In this document: positions 2,480-27,774 of the stretch, one piece after another
Layout of the letters: each line of letters opens with the position of its first letter
How positions within the stretch are numbered: position 1 is the first letter of the stretch
From: Escherichia phage RB16
Sequence record: NC_014467.1
DNA: 64,000 nucleotides
Direction: 5' to 3' (one strand)
Position numbers and translations under genes: made by a program
Notes under the pieces: generated by a model
Databases searched by the model: none
Told to the model about the DNA's origin: nothing
The model's input: the letters and a program-made list of their open reading frames with translations, nothing else

Positions 2480-2620
2480 TTACCCCAAACATACTTTACA
2501 TTTGCATAAAGGGCATTCAGCCTCTTTGATGCGTAGACGTTTCGTTGTTGTCTTCTTCTCCGTATTGTGATCATATACATGAAGACAACGGAAGCAGATC
2601 ACCCAACGTTTATCCGTCAT
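2480..2620 (-). CDS. possible small Cys-rich protein (46 aa; CxxC...CPLCKCKVC)
   Basis: hand translation MTDKRWVICFRCLHVYDHNTEKKTTTKRLRIKEAECPLCKCKVCLG; below ORF-track size cutoff; overlaps next gene by 11 nt. Confidence 0.2.
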   Translation of the reverse strand: MTDKRWVICFRCLHVYDHNTEKKTTTKRLRIKEAECPLCKCKVCLG

Positions 2621-3077
2621 AACCGCCACCGCACTTAACCTCACCTTCAATGAACAGTTCGCGGTTGTCTCTCAAAAGATTGTATTTCTTTTCGAGTTCC
2701 GGCCCGAATGCGTCAGCGTCTTCATAATAGCTATAATTATAACAACCGCATTCATCATCCCATTCAGGTTCATCACCGCGTTCGTTGAAGTGTACGACTT
2801 TGAGATCGTCAACTCCAGACTCTTTCATTTTATCCCAGATATACCGGATGTCAACGCTATGGTAACTGAATGCTTCAAGGGTGATGTTATCACCATCGAT
2901 TTGAGGGATACCCCATTTAGGACGTTGGTCATCGGTGATGATATCAAGCAAAGATTCTACGTTTTCGTGTCCGTAAATCTTCGCGACCTCTTCCTCTTTA
3001 CCAGGACGAACAAGCCCGATCCCGATAATAAAGCTACTGCTTGAACTGTTACTTACAAAACCAGAACGGATCTTCAT
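2610..3077 (-). CDS. hypothetical protein, paralog family A (shared N-terminus MKIRSGFVSNSSSSSFI)
   Basis: first 17 aa identical to ORF 6488-7000, nucleotide differences synonymous; Cys motif ECGCYNYSYY. Confidence 0.55.
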   Translation of the reverse strand: MKIRSGFVSNSSSSSFIIGIGLVRPGKEEEVAKIYGHENVESLLDIITDDQRPKWGIPQIDGDNITLEAFSYHSVDIRYIWDKMKESGVDDLKVVHFNERGDEPEWDDECGCYNYSYYEDADAFGPELEKKYNLLRDNRELFIEGEVKCGGGYDG

Positions 3078-3265
3078 CGTCTTGCCTCATATTTCGCGTT
3101 CTCAGCGATTTTTTCTTGATAGATGTTATATGACATTACCAGAGGCGCAACCGCCACGATAAGCCCTATAAAGCACACAGAGAACTCACGTTTATTGAAA
3201 GCCAGGAACGCAATTGCGCTCCCGACCACGAACACACCCAGCGCTAATAAGAAGAATAACGTCAT
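3074..3265 (-). CDS. small membrane protein (63 aa, two hydrophobic segments)
   Basis: MTLFFLLALGVFVVGSAIAFLAF...GLIVAVAPLVM hydrophobic stretches. Confidence 0.45.
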   Translation of the reverse strand: MTLFFLLALGVFVVGSAIAFLAFNKREFSVCFIGLIVAVAPLVMSYNIYQEKIAENAKYEARR

Positions 3266-3879
3266 TTTGTGAGGGTGTCCATTTGTTTTGATTTTTCCAA
3301 CAGGGTTTTGATTACCGTATCCATCGCCTGTTCTGTATCACCATCATGATAGATGATCGCGGTTTGATGCAAACCTTTCACCAGACGATTGATAATGTAC
3401 GCCATTTCGGTCGGTAACAGTTTACCCGTTTTGTTGAATTTTTCAAACAGATTGAACAGTTCTTCGTTATTCCCTTTCTTACGGAAATTGAAGTTGTGCA
3501 TCCCAGACAGAAGACTATCCAGATACAGAACTGTTTTGTTATCAGAGCGGAGGTGTCCACCGATTTTGTAGTAGTTGCTGAAAACGTATGGTGCTTCACG
3601 AACATCATCGATGTCGAAACCAGCATCATCGATATTGCCTACGTGGGAGAAGAAATCCGCATCGTTATCGAACAGATTGATCGCGCCTTTCTTGTATGGG
3701 AATCCAGCCAGGTTAATGACTCCCTTTTCATACGCATCATCGTTATCAACGACAACGTATTCAGGAAGCATAGGGGCATATGGTTTGTTTTTGTCGTGGT
3801 TTTCGCGATACGCTAAAGGTTCAGCCAGATAGAGGATATCGCCTTGTTTGACTTCATCCCAAAAGATATTACGTGACAT
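3262..3879 (-). CDS. hypothetical protein (205 aa; start trimmed to MSRNIFWD to avoid overlap with upstream gene)
   Basis: ORF track 3262-4047 trimmed to the Met at 3879. Confidence 0.45.
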   Translation of the reverse strand: MSRNIFWDEVKQGDILYLAEPLAYRENHDKNKPYAPMLPEYVVVDNDDAYEKGVINLAGFPYKKGAINLFDNDADFFSHVGNIDDAGFDIDDVREAPYVFSNYYKIGGHLRSDNKTVLYLDSLLSGMHNFNFRKKGNNEELFNLFEKFNKTGKLLPTEMAYIINRLVKGLHQTAIIYHDGDTEQAMDTVIKTLLEKSKQMDTLTK

Positions 3880-3919
3880 ATTAAATTCCTCAACATGCCC
3901 CCTTTCGGGGGCTATATCA

Positions 3920-6139
3920 TTACAGTTTAACTTCTTTTTCTTCCAGGACGATTTCGCAATCGAATGTTGCACCTTCCCAGAACTTATGCGGGATAATGTC
4001 AGTCGCTTTAACCGATACTTTGGTTTCTTCAAAATCCATATCCGCAAACCAGGCGTGGCCTACAACGATACCGTACATTACACGGCTCAGGCGCTTGTTC
4101 AGTGCGCGTACTTCGTTGATGGTTGCCTTTGTTTCTTTATCAAGGTACTCGATTACCTTATCCTTGTCAAGCGCTGCGAGTTCAGCTTTAACAGCATCGT
4201 AAGCCCACAGGATGATCAGGTCGCCGTTGTTCAGTTTCTTCTTACCTTCGGCACGTTTCGCAACGGTTGCCGCTACAGCAGGAAGGGAGGAAACACCCTT
4301 GATTTTCAGATTCAGTTCTTTCGACATATAAACATCAGTCGAATCGGTACGGGTTACTTTCGGGGAGAATCCATAATCACGAATACCCTGTTCAGATAAC
4401 CATTCACCAGCGGCTTCACCGTATTTCTGTTTCAGACCTTCGGCATTACGTAAACCGATCGCGTCGTCACGGAAGAACTTCATCACCTTCTGGCGACCTT
4501 TCAGGATTTCCAGACGGATAGAGTCGTTTACATACTCTTTACCGGAGATCCCGCGAGTCATCGCACGGTTAACCAGAGGCAGACTTGTAAAGTCAACCAG
4601 AACCGACATACGGTCTTCACCGATTTTTGCCAGCGGCTTGATGGTCAAACCAGAAGCGCGGAGGTTTTTCAGTGTCGGAATATCAGTTTCCAGAGGCAGA
4701 ACTTTAACGTTTACGATACCGTCTTTAACGATGGTAAAGTTACGCACCTGCTTAGTTTCGATCTGTTCAGGCAGTCCCAGTTCTTTCTGTTTGCTTTCTG
4801 GGATAGTTACGTAACCTTGCAGATCCGTGTTAATGGAAATGTTAGGACGTGAACTGTTGCCGACCAGATGTTTAACCGATACTTTGGTTGTTGTCTGGGT
4901 AAATTTCGGTGTCCAGATTTCGTGCGTTACCATTTGTGCGGCTAATGCTTTGCGTTCTTCCGGTGTTTTCGCATTTGCGATCTGTTCTGACAGTTGATCC
5001 AGAGTATCATCTTCTTTCTGTACTGTCTGACGGCCTGTACGGTTGTACGCCCAGTGTTCAGAAGACAGGTCGATCACTGTGTCAGTTTCTGCCAGCAGTT
5101 CTAGAGCATCAACCAGAGTGAATGCGTTTTCGTCTGGAACCATGTTGTAATCAACACCTTCAATCAGACGTTTACCCGCATCAACTACCGCTTCCGCGAT
5201 CAGGTCTTTGGCGTTGGAATAATCCTGCTTAGTAAAGCAGTTATCGTAAGCCTTAATCAGACGAACGTCACCGACTTTTTTCAGCACTTTCCATGCCAGA
5301 TCAGGGTTCATGGTATGAAGTGCATGATACAGAACCACGTACAGAACCTGTTCACCTTCCATCGTAGCTGGATCAAATCCGTCGATATCGTTGATTGCGT
5401 TATCACCCAGCGCCCAGATGTTTTTGATATGCTCAGGAACCAGCACAACACCGTTTGCAGCGTTCAGGACATACACGCGCCCTTCGTCAATGTAGATCGC
5501 ATGGGTAGCATCACCTACTTTAACTTCAATACGCGCTGATGTTTGAGCGGTAATGATTTCAGCAAATGCTGGCTCGTATGCGTCGAAACCTTCAACGAAT
5601 TTATGCAATGCGTTGGTTGCTTCTGCCATTTTTTCCAGCAGAGGACGGTTAACATAGTAACCATATTCCAGGAACGCAATGCTGTTAAACGTCAGAGGGA
5701 GAACCGCACACGCTTTCAGGATGTCATCGGTACGCCAGCAGTTATCATAACCATCCGTCAGGAAGATCAGGCTGTTCAGGTTGCCGTTTTCGGATTGCAG
5801 GTCAGTTGCAATCTCAGCAGCCAGATTCAGAGGTTCGACGAAACCAGTACAACCAGTAGGTTTCAGATAACGGTCGATCGCGGTGCAGATATTGGTCAGA
5901 TCCGATACGTTGCTAACCTTCTCACCACGGAACACAGTACCGTAATCGCCTTTGCTGGAGAAGTACAGGATCGAAACAGTATCATCCTGTTTAACCAGGC
6001 TTGCCAGATTCGCTTTCAGGTGCTTACGAATTTTCGGCAATTCGCTGTACATTGAACCGGAAACGTCGCAAACGAAAACGTGGTTGGTCGGAGTCGGTTT
6101 AGATACTGCATTTTTGAATTCGATATTTGTAATTGACAT
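3920..6139 (-). CDS. von Willebrand factor A (vWA) domain protein, 739 aa
   Basis: N-terminal MIDAS motif VCDVSGSM (DxSxS) and downstream IFLTDGYDN; long C-terminal region of unknown fold. Confidence 0.7.
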   Translation of the reverse strand: MSITNIEFKNAVSKPTPTNHVFVCDVSGSMYSELPKIRKHLKANLASLVKQDDTVSILYFSSKGDYGTVFRGEKVSNVSDLTNICTAIDRYLKPTGCTGFVEPLNLAAEIATDLQSENGNLNSLIFLTDGYDNCWRTDDILKACAVLPLTFNSIAFLEYGYYVNRPLLEKMAEATNALHKFVEGFDAYEPAFAEIITAQTSARIEVKVGDATHAIYIDEGRVYVLNAANGVVLVPEHIKNIWALGDNAINDIDGFDPATMEGEQVLYVVLYHALHTMNPDLAWKVLKKVGDVRLIKAYDNCFTKQDYSNAKDLIAEAVVDAGKRLIEGVDYNMVPDENAFTLVDALELLAETDTVIDLSSEHWAYNRTGRQTVQKEDDTLDQLSEQIANAKTPEERKALAAQMVTHEIWTPKFTQTTTKVSVKHLVGNSSRPNISINTDLQGYVTIPESKQKELGLPEQIETKQVRNFTIVKDGIVNVKVLPLETDIPTLKNLRASGLTIKPLAKIGEDRMSVLVDFTSLPLVNRAMTRGISGKEYVNDSIRLEILKGRQKVMKFFRDDAIGLRNAEGLKQKYGEAAGEWLSEQGIRDYGFSPKVTRTDSTDVYMSKELNLKIKGVSSLPAVAATVAKRAEGKKKLNNGDLIILWAYDAVKAELAALDKDKVIEYLDKETKATINEVRALNKRLSRVMYGIVVGHAWFADMDFEETKVSVKATDIIPHKFWEGATFDCEIVLEEKEVKL

Positions 6140-6149
6140 TTAAATTTTC

Positions 6150-6488
6150 TCAGTATTTGGTTGTTTTATGTGCGTTTAAAATGCTTTGGATTTTTTCGGA
6201 AATCGTTTGCTGGTCTGGTTCACATCCCAACTTACCGCCAATCGCCTTATAAAAATCTTCAACAGAGTTTACGTTAAAATCCTGCATATTGAAACCTAAA
6301 GAGTACATGTGTGGATTTTTGAATTCGTAAACATCTACATCATACTCGTTAAGGTCGAAACGTTCAATATATTTCTTCAAAGAAAATAAATCGAACGGTA
6401 GCGGGAGGTGCTGTTCAATCGTTACAGGTTCCCCCAGCTTATGCGCTTTTAGCGTTGCCGCTTTCGTGTACATCATTTCTTCTTTCAT
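6150..6488 (-). CDS. hypothetical protein (112 aa)
   Basis: ORF track. Confidence 0.45.
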   Translation of the reverse strand: MKEEMMYTKAATLKAHKLGEPVTIEQHLPLPFDLFSLKKYIERFDLNEYDVDVYEFKNPHMYSLGFNMQDFNVNSVEDFYKAIGGKLGCEPDQQTISEKIQSILNAHKTTKY

Positions 6489-7000
6489 CAGTGGTGACTC
6501 TTTGATGTATGTTCAAGGTTGCGGAAAATGTTACCATGTTCCAGTTGGGTTCCAATCGGGCCGCACTCGTCAGAGTACGTAAACTCGTAGATAAACACGC
6601 CGTTTTGATTCCCGTACTTCGTGTTGTATTCTTCATACAGCCACATCTTGATCAGAGCGTCTTTCTCTTCGGTTTCTAAATCGTACCAATCCCGACCATC
6701 ATATGCAAGTGCAATTTGCGGATTTGAACGATAACGGGTTTCCGCGCTGTCTTCGGTTTCCCAATCATAGCGCTTATCATCGTAATACGATTCAAAACTA
6801 TTACCCATATGACCGCCTAAGTCACGGTGAACGTGTTGAACAACTTCTTCGGATGTCAGCGGGGGATTGTAGTAACCGCAATTAGGGGAACATTCACCCA
6901 TCATTTCACGAAGGTTGTTGATATCAGTCGGATCTTTCGGGAACCGGACGATGAAACTACTTGATGAACTATTGCTTACAAAACCAGAACGAATTTTCAT
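6488..7000 (-). CDS. hypothetical protein, paralog family A (shared N-terminus MKIRSGFVSNSSSSSFI)
   Basis: first 17 aa identical to ORF 2610-3077; Cys motif ECSPNCGYYN. Confidence 0.55.
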   Translation of the reverse strand: MKIRSGFVSNSSSSSFIVRFPKDPTDINNLREMMGECSPNCGYYNPPLTSEEVVQHVHRDLGGHMGNSFESYYDDKRYDWETEDSAETRYRSNPQIALAYDGRDWYDLETEEKDALIKMWLYEEYNTKYGNQNGVFIYEFTYSDECGPIGTQLEHGNIFRNLEHTSKSHH

Positions 7001-8758: not shown

Positions 8759-9013
8759 TCAAAAAATATGCGTAAGGTTTCCGGCGTTGTTCGGGTATTC
8801 CACGTAATCGCCACGGAATATGTTTAGATCGGAATCGAACTTAAATCCTTGACCCCTGACATCCTCATGACGGGAAATATAAGAACATCCGTACTTTTGT
8901 AGATCTTCCATGTACATTTCAGTGATGCGTTTTGCTTTGTCCATTCCCCGACCTTCAAATCGGGAACGGCGATAATGTTCCAGCAAAAACGCATATAACT
9001 TTTCGTATGTCAC
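8759..9013 (-). CDS. hypothetical protein (84 aa)
   Basis: ORF track. Confidence 0.4.
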   Translation of the reverse strand: MTYEKLYAFLLEHYRRSRFEGRGMDKAKRITEMYMEDLQKYGCSYISRHEDVRGQGFKFDSDLNIFRGDYVEYPNNAGNLTHIF

Positions 9014-9918
9014 AGAACTTTCCTTATCTGTTTGGCTATTGCCTCGATAACTGGCACGGAAACGGAGTTACCCGCTTGCTTGTATGCTTGTTTTTTACTC
9101 GATGGAATAATAAACGAATCTGGGAAGCCTTGCAAGCGAAAACATTCACGCGGGGTTAATCGTCGTGGGTTCTTCCCGTCCTGCAACACCAGACATTGAA
9201 CGCCGTCCTTGTAATATTGCGCGGTGATGGTTCCTGTGTGCGTAGAATCGGCTGTGACGGCCTGATAACCAAAGCCCTTACCGTTTGCCTTATTTCGTTC
9301 CTTACGCTCTCTAAAGCCTTTCCACGCGTTATCTGATAGAGTGTACGAATCATCAGCATCTTCGAGGATATCACCTACGCGCGTAGGGGTACGCGGGGGA
9401 ACCGGAAACGAAAAGAATACATCATCCAGGAAGCAGACAATGAACACGCGTTCACGTCGCTGGGGTAGTCCGAAATCTTTTGTATTCAGTCGCTGATAGA
9501 ATACGTTGTATCCTTCGGCCTCAAGAAGCCCGTAAATCGTTTTAAACGTCTTTCCCTTGTCATGGGTTAGCAATTCAGGCACGTTCTCAAAGAACAGCAC
9601 ACGGGGCTTTTTAGCGCGTATGATGCGGAGGATTTCAAAGAACACCGTACCGCGAGCATCATCAAATCCCAGTTTCAATCCGGCTTTACTGAATGCCTGA
9701 CACGGGAACCCAGCCAACAGGATATCGTGATCGGGTACTTTGTTTTCATCAATGGCAAACAGATCACCCTGTAGGTTATCGTCGCCCCAGTTTTCAATAT
9801 AGGTTTGCTGTGCGTGTTTGTCGATCTCAGACGTTAAAAGGCATTCGACCCCGCCGAATGCATTATCAAATCCAAATCGAACTCCACCAACGCCAGCGCA
9901 GAGGTCAATTATTTTCAT
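9010..9918 (-). CDS. DNA (cytosine-5)-methyltransferase, Dcm-like
   Basis: C5-MTase motifs in order: LCAGVGG (I), FPCQAFS (IV, catalytic Cys), ENV (VI), QRRERVF (VIII), GNSV (X). Confidence 0.85.
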   Translation of the reverse strand: MKIIDLCAGVGGVRFGFDNAFGGVECLLTSEIDKHAQQTYIENWGDDNLQGDLFAIDENKVPDHDILLAGFPCQAFSKAGLKLGFDDARGTVFFEILRIIRAKKPRVLFFENVPELLTHDKGKTFKTIYGLLEAEGYNVFYQRLNTKDFGLPQRRERVFIVCFLDDVFFSFPVPPRTPTRVGDILEDADDSYTLSDNAWKGFRERKERNKANGKGFGYQAVTADSTHTGTITAQYYKDGVQCLVLQDGKNPRRLTPRECFRLQGFPDSFIIPSSKKQAYKQAGNSVSVPVIEAIAKQIRKVL

Positions 9919-26110: not shown

Positions 26111-26406
26111 ATCATCTTACCATATTTGAGAGTATTCATATAACCGATGATGTATTCAACAACAGCATCGCGTTCTTCTTCACATTCATATCCAGCCCAC
26201 GTTATCGACTGATTATGTGCTAAATGAAACTTAATCGCAGGTTTCCATGTTTTGTTAAGACAAGGAATTTTAGCATCAGTCTCAATCCATGAAACGTGCT
26301 CTACGTTAACAGGATAGTTAATACATTCCACCTCTGCATTACTATTGTATACAAAATGGTCTGCATATAAACGTTTATACGATTTAATTTCTGGTACAAT
26401 AATCAT
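26107..26406 (-). CDS. hypothetical protein (99 aa)
   Basis: ORF track. Confidence 0.4.
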   Translation of the reverse strand: MIIVPEIKSYKRLYADHFVYNSNAEVECINYPVNVEHVSWIETDAKIPCLNKTWKPAIKFHLAHNQSITWAGYECEEERDAVVEYIIGYMNTLKYGKMI

Positions 26407-27557
26407 TTTAACTCCACTGCATAAACATCGGTTTCAGTGGCTTTGTGTACGCGCATATCTTTACCGCATACTGCATAAGCCGGACAGTTACGACAACCGT
26501 TATGATCCTTATTACCGATCAGTTCATTACGGAACTGTTTGGTTTTCGGATGTTCCCAGATATCCTTAATGAAATCGTTCGCTTCCAGGACGTTCAAGCC
26601 TTCTTCCCAACCACCTTCAACCCAGCGTTCGGTAAACGAACAAGGGAAGAACTCGCCTTTCTCGTTGATGTACGAGCTAAACATGGTTGCTTCACAATCT
26701 TCGGCATACTGTTTGTACTGTTCGAAGTTTGGGTGTCCTTCCATCGCTTCAACGAAAGCGGGGGCTGAACAGCTATCGAAACCAAATCCTACACCAGAAT
26801 CAAGGCAATATTCAACAAGTTTTTTGTATTGTTCGCGGGTAACAGTATCCCAGTTCTTACCGCGTCCCTTTTGTTTCAGCCCCAGGAACACAATCGCATT
26901 GACTTGTTTCAGTCGCGGATCATTGCGCACAGCATCAACAACGTTAAACGCATCATCATAGGTTTTAGAGCTAACCATGAAGTGAAGGTTAATTTGCTGT
27001 TGTCCTGCTTCTGCCAGGTTCGCTACCGAGTCGAAAGCGACATCGAAGCCAGCATGTTTATAAACCGATACCGCAACAGCCCCAGCAACAGCCGCTAAAC
27101 GCGCTGCAACGTCTTTTGATACATCGGCAATGGTAAGGTTCGGCACAATGCCTTTAGAACGCGCATAGGCCATCATATCGAACATATCAGGGTTTGTTTG
27201 TCCCTGTGCATCAGCACCGAGGGCGCATTGAGTCAACCAGGGCATTTTATCAATGATAGATTTGAATGATTCCAGATCCATATTGTAGCCGTTAGGGTTG
27301 TTGGACTTGTAACAGAAACCGCACAGCTTACCAGCGGGGCCATTACATTTCGTGGTGATCTCGATATCGAGAATTTCAGGGAAAGGCGCGTATGTCGGAT
27401 CGCTTGCAAAGGTTGTACCCCAACGAGAGAATTCGCCAGTGTCAACATTGAAATTGTAGTTGTACCACTTAGAGCGAGCAAAGCGCATATTACCCTGCTG
27501 GTAAATCATCAGCGAAGGGGCTTTCATTACAGTTTGTGCGCGGTCAATAATATCCAT
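26403..27557 (-). CDS. putative Fe-S / radical-SAM-like enzyme with atypical Cys cluster (about 384 aa)
   Basis: LDIEITTKCNGPAGKLCGFCY (Cx7Cx2C preceded by TxxCN as in radical SAM cores) plus C-terminal CRNCPAYAVCG cluster; start set at MDIIDRAQ. Confidence 0.4.
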   Translation of the reverse strand: MDIIDRAQTVMKAPSLMIYQQGNMRFARSKWYNYNFNVDTGEFSRWGTTFASDPTYAPFPEILDIEITTKCNGPAGKLCGFCYKSNNPNGYNMDLESFKSIIDKMPWLTQCALGADAQGQTNPDMFDMMAYARSKGIVPNLTIADVSKDVAARLAAVAGAVAVSVYKHAGFDVAFDSVANLAEAGQQQINLHFMVSSKTYDDAFNVVDAVRNDPRLKQVNAIVFLGLKQKGRGKNWDTVTREQYKKLVEYCLDSGVGFGFDSCSAPAFVEAMEGHPNFEQYKQYAEDCEATMFSSYINEKGEFFPCSFTERWVEGGWEEGLNVLEANDFIKDIWEHPKTKQFRNELIGNKDHNGCRNCPAYAVCGKDMRVHKATETDVYAVELK

Positions 27558-27567
27558 GATATAGTTC

Positions 27568-27774
27568 TCAAAATTTAACGTGGGATTGGAAAACAGCACG
27601 AGCAAGGTTTTCGCTATCGAACGGGATTGATGTTCCCTGGTCTTTGCTGTCAATGTTAACGCGCCAGAACTCACTAGACCCGTTTTTGGTGGAGTAATGC
27701 ATCAGCGTTACCGTCTTATTCTTTTCCAGGAAGATGCGTTTATCAATCTCTGTTTTTATTTCGTGCTGCATCAT
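27568..27774 (-). CDS. hypothetical protein (68 aa)
   Basis: ORF track. Confidence 0.4.
   Translation of the reverse strand: MMQHEIKTEIDKRIFLEKNKTVTLMHYSTKNGSSEFWRVNIDSKDQGTSIPFDSENLARAVFQSHVKF

Follow-up and report, generated by a model that had tools for sequence, protein, structure and literature searches.

Radical S-adenosylmethionine (SAM) enzymes that carry a SPASM domain are maturases of peptides and proteins. Among them, the anaerobic sulfatase-maturating enzymes (anSMEs) modify a Ser or Cys in sulfatases. In multi-precursor families of peptides that are made by ribosomes and modified after translation (RiPPs), such as the prochlorosins and the NHLP/Nif11 families, one maturase serves many precursors that combine a conserved leader with a hypervariable core. 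In T4-type phages, hypervariable internal proteins share an N-terminal leader that is conserved. A comparable chemistry is that of the enzymes that form three-residue cyclophanes (3-CyFEs), radical SAM/SPASM proteins that join an aromatic residue i to the C-beta of residue i+2 (PMC11002830, sec. 16), as MscB of the FxsB family does between Phe C4 and Ser C-beta in F-x-S (PMC11002830, sec. 16). Kaur et al. 2020 describe FxSxx peptides together with a radical SAM/SPASM enzyme in bacterial conflict systems that contain a von Willebrand factor A (vWA) protein and MoxR (PMC7159879, sec. 24). Here, we analyzed a 64,000-nucleotide stretch (the window) of the genome of Escherichia phage RB16 (NC_014467.1), in which two genes encode proteins that start with the same short peptide (the tag, MK(I)RxGFVSNSSSSSF in consensus) and a third encodes a radical SAM/SPASM enzyme. 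We consider it probable that the tag is the substrate motif of one phage radical SAM/SPASM protein maturase.

The source phage is RB43-like and of T4 type (Pseudotevenvirus), with 95-98% identity to RB43 and to Citrobacter phages Miller and IME-CF2. Its 176,788-bp genome holds only two tag genes, both on the minus strand and both preceded by a GAGG Shine-Dalgarno sequence: orf155 (P0001; 155 aa, 2610-3077, with the tag at 3027-3077) and orf170 (P0002, phrog_7397; 170 aa, 6488-7000, with the tag at 6950-7000). A first-pass annotation of the window had reported that the two open reading frames (ORFs) share 17 N-terminal residues with synonymous nucleotide differences, and both observations are correct: each ORF opens with MKIRSGFVSNSSSSSFI, and 8 of the 17 codons differ over the 51 nt, all synonymously, including AGC versus TCA for Ser. 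Since all eight differences are silent, the identity reflects selection on the peptide, strong and purifying, and not a recent DNA duplication. The codon divergence speaks against a cassette generated by recombination, as had been proposed. The tag, MK.R.GFVSNSSSSSF, is essentially invariant among the homologues of each protein, even at ~30% overall identity. The term "paralogous", used for the pair in the first-pass annotation, suits the tag but not the bodies, as no similarity was detectable past residue 18, with BLASTP aligning the tag only and HHalign of the bodies giving a probability of 0.2. A Cys motif said to be common to the two bodies (C(x)CGYYN / CGCYNYSYY) occupies residues 37-45 of one protein but 109-118 of the second, and was rejected as unconserved in either family: the homologues of the 155-aa protein keep only the YNY and Asp positions, not the Cys, and in the 170-aa family the whole stretch is unconserved. 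Besides the tag and YNY, the 155-aa family is characterized by an acidic GDEPE(W/Y)DD stretch and a C-terminal G.G(R/Y)(N/D)G, and the 170-aa family by an insert that is helical and variable, with the motif YSDE.G...LEHGNIFRN..H..SHH at the C-terminus.

Scans of the two tagged proteins against Pfam, NCBIfam and PADLOC gave no match, and an ESM Atlas search with P0002 returned only unnamed viral clusters. In PHROGs, P0002 was assigned to phrog_7397 only, and the C-terminal half of P0001 (residues 64-147) matched phrog_132, "head-tail adaptor", at E=3e-10. Some GenBank records of related Klebsiella phages carry the labels "head-tail adaptor" and "minor tail protein" within the region of window positions 2610-3077. 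Because of the early-gene-like context and the membership in the tag family, these labels look like propagated mislabels.

A profile search with the leader, recommended in the first-pass annotation, revealed a widespread signature that is not specific to this part of the phage genome. Using a 34-residue profile, 21,363 representative clusters (50% identity) were matched at E<=1e-3 among 1.84 billion proteins, with the tag at residues 1-33 in almost all of the matches listed. A degenerate DNA pattern of the tag located at least 119 loci in IMG/VR, on contigs of 30-550 kb and often with 2-6 tandem copies, from which 226 tagged ORFs were extracted (median length 130 aa). The bodies of 196 of these ORFs fell into 63 unconnected BLAST components, the body of the 170-aa protein being the most widespread type. 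No Pfam family was found in 85 diverse tagged representatives, where phrog_7397 was the only recurring PHROG, and literature searches on the tag motif, phrog_132, phage SPASM enzymes and a radical SAM protein of RB43 found no description of the system. The tag is an unannotated family signature, with no Pfam, NCBIfam or findable literature entry. For an unbiased estimate of its conservation, we used 255 non-identical proteins found by profile near the enzyme gene (tagged proteins have median lengths of 130-134 aa). R4, S11 and S12 are present in all 255, N10 in 254, F7 and S9 in 253 each, and V8 in 248; position 1 is Met or an alternative start in ~251, positions 13 and 14 accept S/T/C, and position 5 is variable.

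The bodies behind the tag resemble an assortment of binding modules more than a single enzyme. Several body families have zinc-ribbon-like CxxC...CxxC motifs (e.g., L006:729-1034, L016:457-993, L029:3204-3842), and others are strongly acidic. Four metagenomic proteins (P0083, P0084, P0085 and P0223) contain a second, internal tag that is still preceded by M-K; these look like two adjacent tag genes read as one, whether because the stop was lost or recoded or because the genes are truly fused. An apparent fusion of the tag with a dUTPase (P0248) was considered as evidence of modularity and discarded, as its first 85 residues nearly equal those of a 131-aa family member (one substitution) and a chimera or deletion fusion is more likely. 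A variant of the tag, MKIRKGFVTNSSSSSFIICF..., heads a 131-aa body with the C-terminus EGEGRDG (tag cluster 9, e.g., L011:2329-2724) and pairs with a second, more divergent class of the enzyme, which scores ~172 bits versus ~450 (G002, G004, G009).

The association of the tag with the radical SAM/SPASM enzyme was recovered in both directions. When all non-tag ORFs of the 117 loci that the tag alone had retrieved were clustered, a ~360-aa family with Radical_SAM and SPASM domains was found in 45 of the loci, always on the strand of the tag genes and 0-3.7 kb off. In the reverse test, the enzyme alone served to retrieve 80 IMG/VR loci with 10-kb flanks, of which 72 remained after removal of duplicates. 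Tag genes lay within 10 kb of the enzyme in 61 of these 72. The tag-profile scores in the enzyme-fetched loci are cleanly bimodal, and all 283 matches of at least 20 bits are on the strand of the enzyme, with none opposite; in the non-redundant loci, 208 tag genes are downstream and 42 upstream of it. The nearest tag gene is less than 1 kb away in 41 of the 61 loci. Tandem arrays in uncultivated large phages reach 13 tag genes, as in one enzyme-fetched locus, and usually stand just 3' of the ~360-aa gene on the same strand. Of the 11 enzyme loci with no tag gene nearby, six belong to RB43-like phages, whose tag genes are ~20 kb away.

Whole records gave a concordant result. Among 15 records whose tag window was without the enzyme, it was present elsewhere in nine, including all five that are at least 85% complete, and each of the six records that had none is at most 40% complete. 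Among isolates, 171 records contain the enzyme, and they come from the genera that also supply the 175 records with tag genes. Cellular genomes seldom carry the enzyme family; in a census of them, binned by likeness to the enzyme, a tag was found within 10 kb in 9 of 12 carriers of the 40-59% band, in 6 of 84 below 20% and in none of six at 20-39% (under five were tried at 60% and above), and random places in the same genomes had no tags. The coupling of tag and enzyme is well supported, and the consistent partner of the tag is this enzyme, not a vWA cassette. The earlier suggestion of a targeting or processing signal was in the right direction, since the leader heads thousands of otherwise unrelated phage proteins, although its partner turned out to be a radical SAM/SPASM enzyme and not the cassette in which it was noticed.

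In the window, the enzyme (P0293, 384 aa) is encoded on the minus strand at 26403-27557, from an ATG at 27557, and is the proposed maturase of both tagged proteins. It is 41% identical (E=5e-78) to an array-linked enzyme (L002). Judged by its sequence, P0293 has the two features that define the radical SAM/SPASM-twitch maturases, a three-Cys radical SAM core and an auxiliary Fe-S domain. The Cys triad is C71-x7-C79-x2-C82, with C79 and C82 invariant in the alignment of the enzyme family, and it follows an N-terminal motif, YNYNF..TG.F.RWG. The auxiliary-cluster domain has four invariant Cys (C263, C288, C306 and C358) and matches PF13186 (SPASM) at 26.0 bits versus a cut-off of 21.5, and the full seven-Cys SPASM motif is not evident. 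Some related phage records label the homologue of P0293 "radical SAM protein", and its nearest ESM Atlas clusters are 83-98% viral among the matches listed. A PDB sequence search with the enzyme gave spurious or very weak matches only. The reading frame of P0293 is open from a GTG at 27674 (423 aa; 26403-27674), and the homologues align from about the ATG at 27557. In four jumbo-phage records (G001, G007, G010 and G011, those of loci L005, L071, L047 and L062), one in-frame stop (TAA, TAG or TGA) lies within the enzyme match (E ~1e-130), which may reflect an alignment overrun past the gene end or stop-codon recoding.

AlphaFold2 (AF2) models of the two tagged proteins have confident bodies, with a mean predicted local distance difference test score (pLDDT) of 89 and 84, and in both the residues 1-10 are below 50 (~42), with the first strand starting at residue 13. 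In these models, R4-G6-F7-V8-S9-N10 is a flexible tail ahead of the fold. Given the low pLDDT of residues 1-10 and the strand from residue 13, the tag would be neither a buried active-site loop nor a hydrophobic signal peptide. Foldseek searches against the PDB (both models) and BFVD (the P0001 model) found nothing at E<0.1, and VIA-align gave generic ferredoxin/ACT-like similarity only (Z 3.8-5.5), the core of P0001 being weakly ferredoxin/ACT-like. A complex prediction for the enzyme with P0001 scored 0.30 against a mark of 0.32 and counts neither for nor against binding.

A SPASM-type radical SAM enzyme followed by gene arrays whose only common element is a short, strictly N-terminal, flexible and near-invariant motif is the pattern typical of a maturase and its substrates, and we infer that the tagged proteins are the substrates of the enzyme. 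The tag would thereby mark a very large and highly diversified set of small phage proteins for one phage-encoded maturase. With nothing in common among the bodies, the tag itself is most likely where the modification is placed: the tail, flexible and preceding the first beta-strand of each body, would thread into the enzyme, a 5'-deoxyadenosyl radical would abstract a hydrogen within the invariant F7-V8-S9-N10-S11-S12 core, and the modified tag could then serve as a shared cap or handle for the variable effector bodies, a biological role that is speculative. The RB43-like version would be minimal and dispersed, with the enzyme at 26403-27557 and its substrates at 2610-3077 and 6488-7000, and in many uncultivated large phages the enzyme is directly followed by arrays of 2-13 putative substrates.

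Several described systems resemble this arrangement in part. In the multi-precursor RiPPs, as here, one enzyme gene serves tandem substrate genes with a shared N-terminal segment and a hypervariable remainder; in the phages, however, the conserved segment of ~16 residues is probably itself modified and sits on structured domains instead of short cores. The triceptide or FxSxx-COOH systems of the 3-CyFEs (MscB, XncB, OscB) likewise place a SPASM radical SAM enzyme beside genes that share an aromatic-x-x motif, which the tag contains as F7 (253/255), V8 (248/255) and S9 (253/255). Because F7-V8-S9-N10-S11 literally reads FxSxx, and in view of the precedents of MscB and of the FxSxx peptides, a Phe7-Ser9 carbon-carbon crosslink, i to i+2, as made by FxsB/MscB-type enzymes, is our leading guess at the chemistry. 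This chemistry is speculative, and Ser oxidation, epimerization or another crosslink may apply instead.

Several observations weigh against a maturase of this kind acting on the tag. PF04055 (Radical_SAM) scores 14.5 bits on P0293, under its cut-off, although it exceeds the cut-off (30.6-32.8 bits) in three homologues that are ~40% identical to P0293. The spacing of the triad in P0293 is Cx7Cx2C, not Cx3Cx2C; across homologues Cx3Cx2C, Cx6Cx2C and Cx7Cx2C all occur. NCBIfam scans of P0293 (E<=10) and six homologues gave no match to the curated maturase models FxsB, XyeB and anSME, which separates the phage enzyme from those of the triceptide systems, and the NCBIfam matches obtained were to generic radical SAM, SPASM and twitch models only, far under their cut-offs. 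The substrates known for 3-CyFEs are short peptides whose C-terminal core holds the motif, on precursors released by peptidases, whereas the phage motif is at residue 7, at the extreme N-terminus of folded proteins of 70-300 aa that are encoded in arrays of up to 13 by a virus; among the clustered neighbours of tag-centred loci, there was no conserved protease or exporter. In the window phage itself, the enzyme is ~20 kb from the tag genes, so that linkage there means co-occurrence over ~170 related genomes. The invariant Ser run is unexplained by an F-x-S crosslink alone, and the modification of the tag is a prediction made from genes.

The alternative that survives best keeps the tag as an enzyme substrate and changes the chemistry: conversion of Ser to formylglycine by an anSME-like activity, epimerization, an ether or other crosslink in the Ser run, or a radical on Gly6. 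It draws on the same genomic coupling as the crosslink, and the six near-invariant Ser suggest that Ser itself matters. The S/T/C tolerated at positions 13 and 14 are residue classes accepted by anSME-type enzymes, and anSMEs, too, are radical SAM/SPASM enzymes whose targets are whole proteins, modified at a short motif not far from the N-terminus. The tag, however, has neither the sulfatase C/S-x-P/A-x-R motif nor the S/C-x-P-x-R form of it, the enzyme matches no anSME hidden Markov model, and the substrates do not belong to one enzyme family. For the variant with a radical on Gly6, the R-x-G-F of the tag loosely resembles the RVxG[FYW] motif of glycyl-radical proteins, yet its Arg stands at -2, not -3, from Gly6, and position 5 is variable where R-[IVT]-[CSA]-G-[YWF] would be expected. 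Matches of NrdG models to the enzyme were marginal (E ~0.004, within a range of 0.001-0.005, far under the cut-offs), and glycyl-radical activases are not known to carry SPASM domains. Taken together, these other chemistries appear unlikely.

A sorting role was considered as well, in which the tag would direct proteins into the capsid for ejection, as in the T4 internal proteins, or into secretion, with the radical SAM gene as a bystander in a variable region. The strictly N-terminal position and the predicted flexibility of the tag fit such a role, and so does the likeness to the T4 internal-protein leader, also conserved on rapidly diverging small proteins. That leader nevertheless differs in sequence, and the tag is linked to a radical SAM enzyme and not to head genes. 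The first 35 residues of P0001 have no (L/I)xE site for the prohead protease, and the LRE at residues 30-32 of P0002 is unconserved across the tag family. As a Sec signal, the tag is too polar (SNSSSSS) and insufficiently hydrophobic, with RFPKDPTD coming next in P0002; it lacks the hydrophobic h-region of at least 10 residues that follows a basic n-region in Sec and Tat signals, and AF2 places residues 13-20 in a core beta-strand. Moreover, large phages of very different kinds carry this same tag, and a bystander enzyme would not give same-strand tag genes in 61 of 72 loci, no opposite-strand matches and presence in every near-complete genome tested. We therefore regard a sorting signal as very improbable, and a substrate motif for the enzyme as the better account of these data.

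The first-pass annotation had instead seen the two tag genes as brackets of a cassette built around a large vWA protein. The intervening genes are indeed co-oriented between the two tag ORFs, and every gene of the locus is on the minus strand. They encode a 112-aa protein (orf112, P0004, phrog_7677; 6150-6488), the 739-aa vWA protein (P0003, phrog_2426; 3920-6139, with the VWA domain at residues 21-176), a 205-aa protein (orf205, P0005, phrog_7309; 3262-3879) and a 63-aa two-helix membrane protein (P0006, phrog_7160; 3074-3265). The 112-aa and 205-aa ORFs are clade-specific, and they and the membrane ORF are given for context only. Elsewhere in the window, a gp25 homologue lies at 81-473, and a C-5 cytosine DNA methyltransferase (Dcm-like) gene at 9010-9918, in the same minus-strand block a few kb upstream of the tag genes, bears the same annotation in Citrobacter phage Miller.

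A functional cassette could mean that the metal ion-dependent adhesion site (MIDAS) domain of the vWA protein binds the Ser-rich tag, or that the phage has its own vWA-MoxR/FxSxx system. The arrangement is conserved across the ~175 RB43-like records that hold tag genes, and in L032, a distant jumbo-phage locus on a 307-kb contig, a 27%-identical vWA homologue (2807-4876) lies ~3 kb upstream of two tag genes (7868 and 8614), the one case beyond the RB43-like clade in which vWA and tag genes were seen close together. The bacterial VMAP-ternary vWA systems pair FxSxx peptides with radical SAM/SPASM enzymes, so that vWA, an FxSxx-type motif and such an enzyme occur in one genome there as in this phage (PMC7159879). 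The parallel is intriguing but not supported as a functional link here, since the phage has no MoxR ATPase or metallopeptidase and the vWA gene is unlinked to the enzyme outside the RB43-like clade: MoxR (AAA_3, PF07726) was not found in the 99%-complete genome by a search that was positive in 14 of 14 control genomes. A vWA gene occurs in none of the 80 enzyme-centred 21-kb loci (within 10 kb of the enzyme) and in only 3 of the 119 tag-centred ones, and the vWA family is present in 502 phage records versus 171 with the enzyme, ranging to Ackermannviridae, Rhizobium phages and Bacillus phage AR9. In the one Ackermannviridae locus inspected, that of Salmonella phage maane (L204, 50606-62816), a vWA homologue of 48% identity is found without tag genes or the other cassette genes. 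Its neighbourhood is quite unlike that in RB43-like phages, with two genes annotated as putative nicotinamide phosphoribosyltransferase on one side and an "acyl carrier protein" gene on the other. The set of vWA, 112-aa, 205-aa and membrane genes joins tag genes in the RB43-like clade only, apart from the vWA gene of L032. On the absence of vWA from all 80 enzyme loci, the maane locus without tag genes and the lack of MoxR, a vWA-centred cassette was rejected as the general context of the tag; it is the least probable of the explanations considered, and P0003 appears to be an incidental neighbour that is not a demonstrable part of the tag system.

Rather than a local cassette, the two tag genes of the window represent the RB43-clade branch of an undescribed phage system of vast extent. 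It is conceivable, although we hold this with less than even confidence, that large phages have an equivalent of RiPP biosynthesis at the level of proteins, in which one enzyme crosslinks, perhaps as a Phe-Ser cyclophane, the 16-residue tag of tens of thousands of unrelated and rapidly diversifying effectors, and the resulting cap is needed for their stability, localization or action on the host. If the tag is indeed modified by the enzyme, the tagged proteins would be among the largest unannotated phage protein families (more than 21,000 clusters at 50% identity), and theirs would be the first phage-encoded radical SAM modification system for a whole repertoire of folded proteins. The enzymes would form a new clade of maturases, possibly with a new chemistry, and their short portable recognition tag would be of biotechnological interest. 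The RB43-like phages of E. coli, Klebsiella and Citrobacter, whose version is minimal, with one enzyme and two substrates, would make the system testable in culturable phages. For phage biology at large, the tag would offer a single handle for finding fast-evolving effectors, candidate proteins of host takeover or counter-defence.

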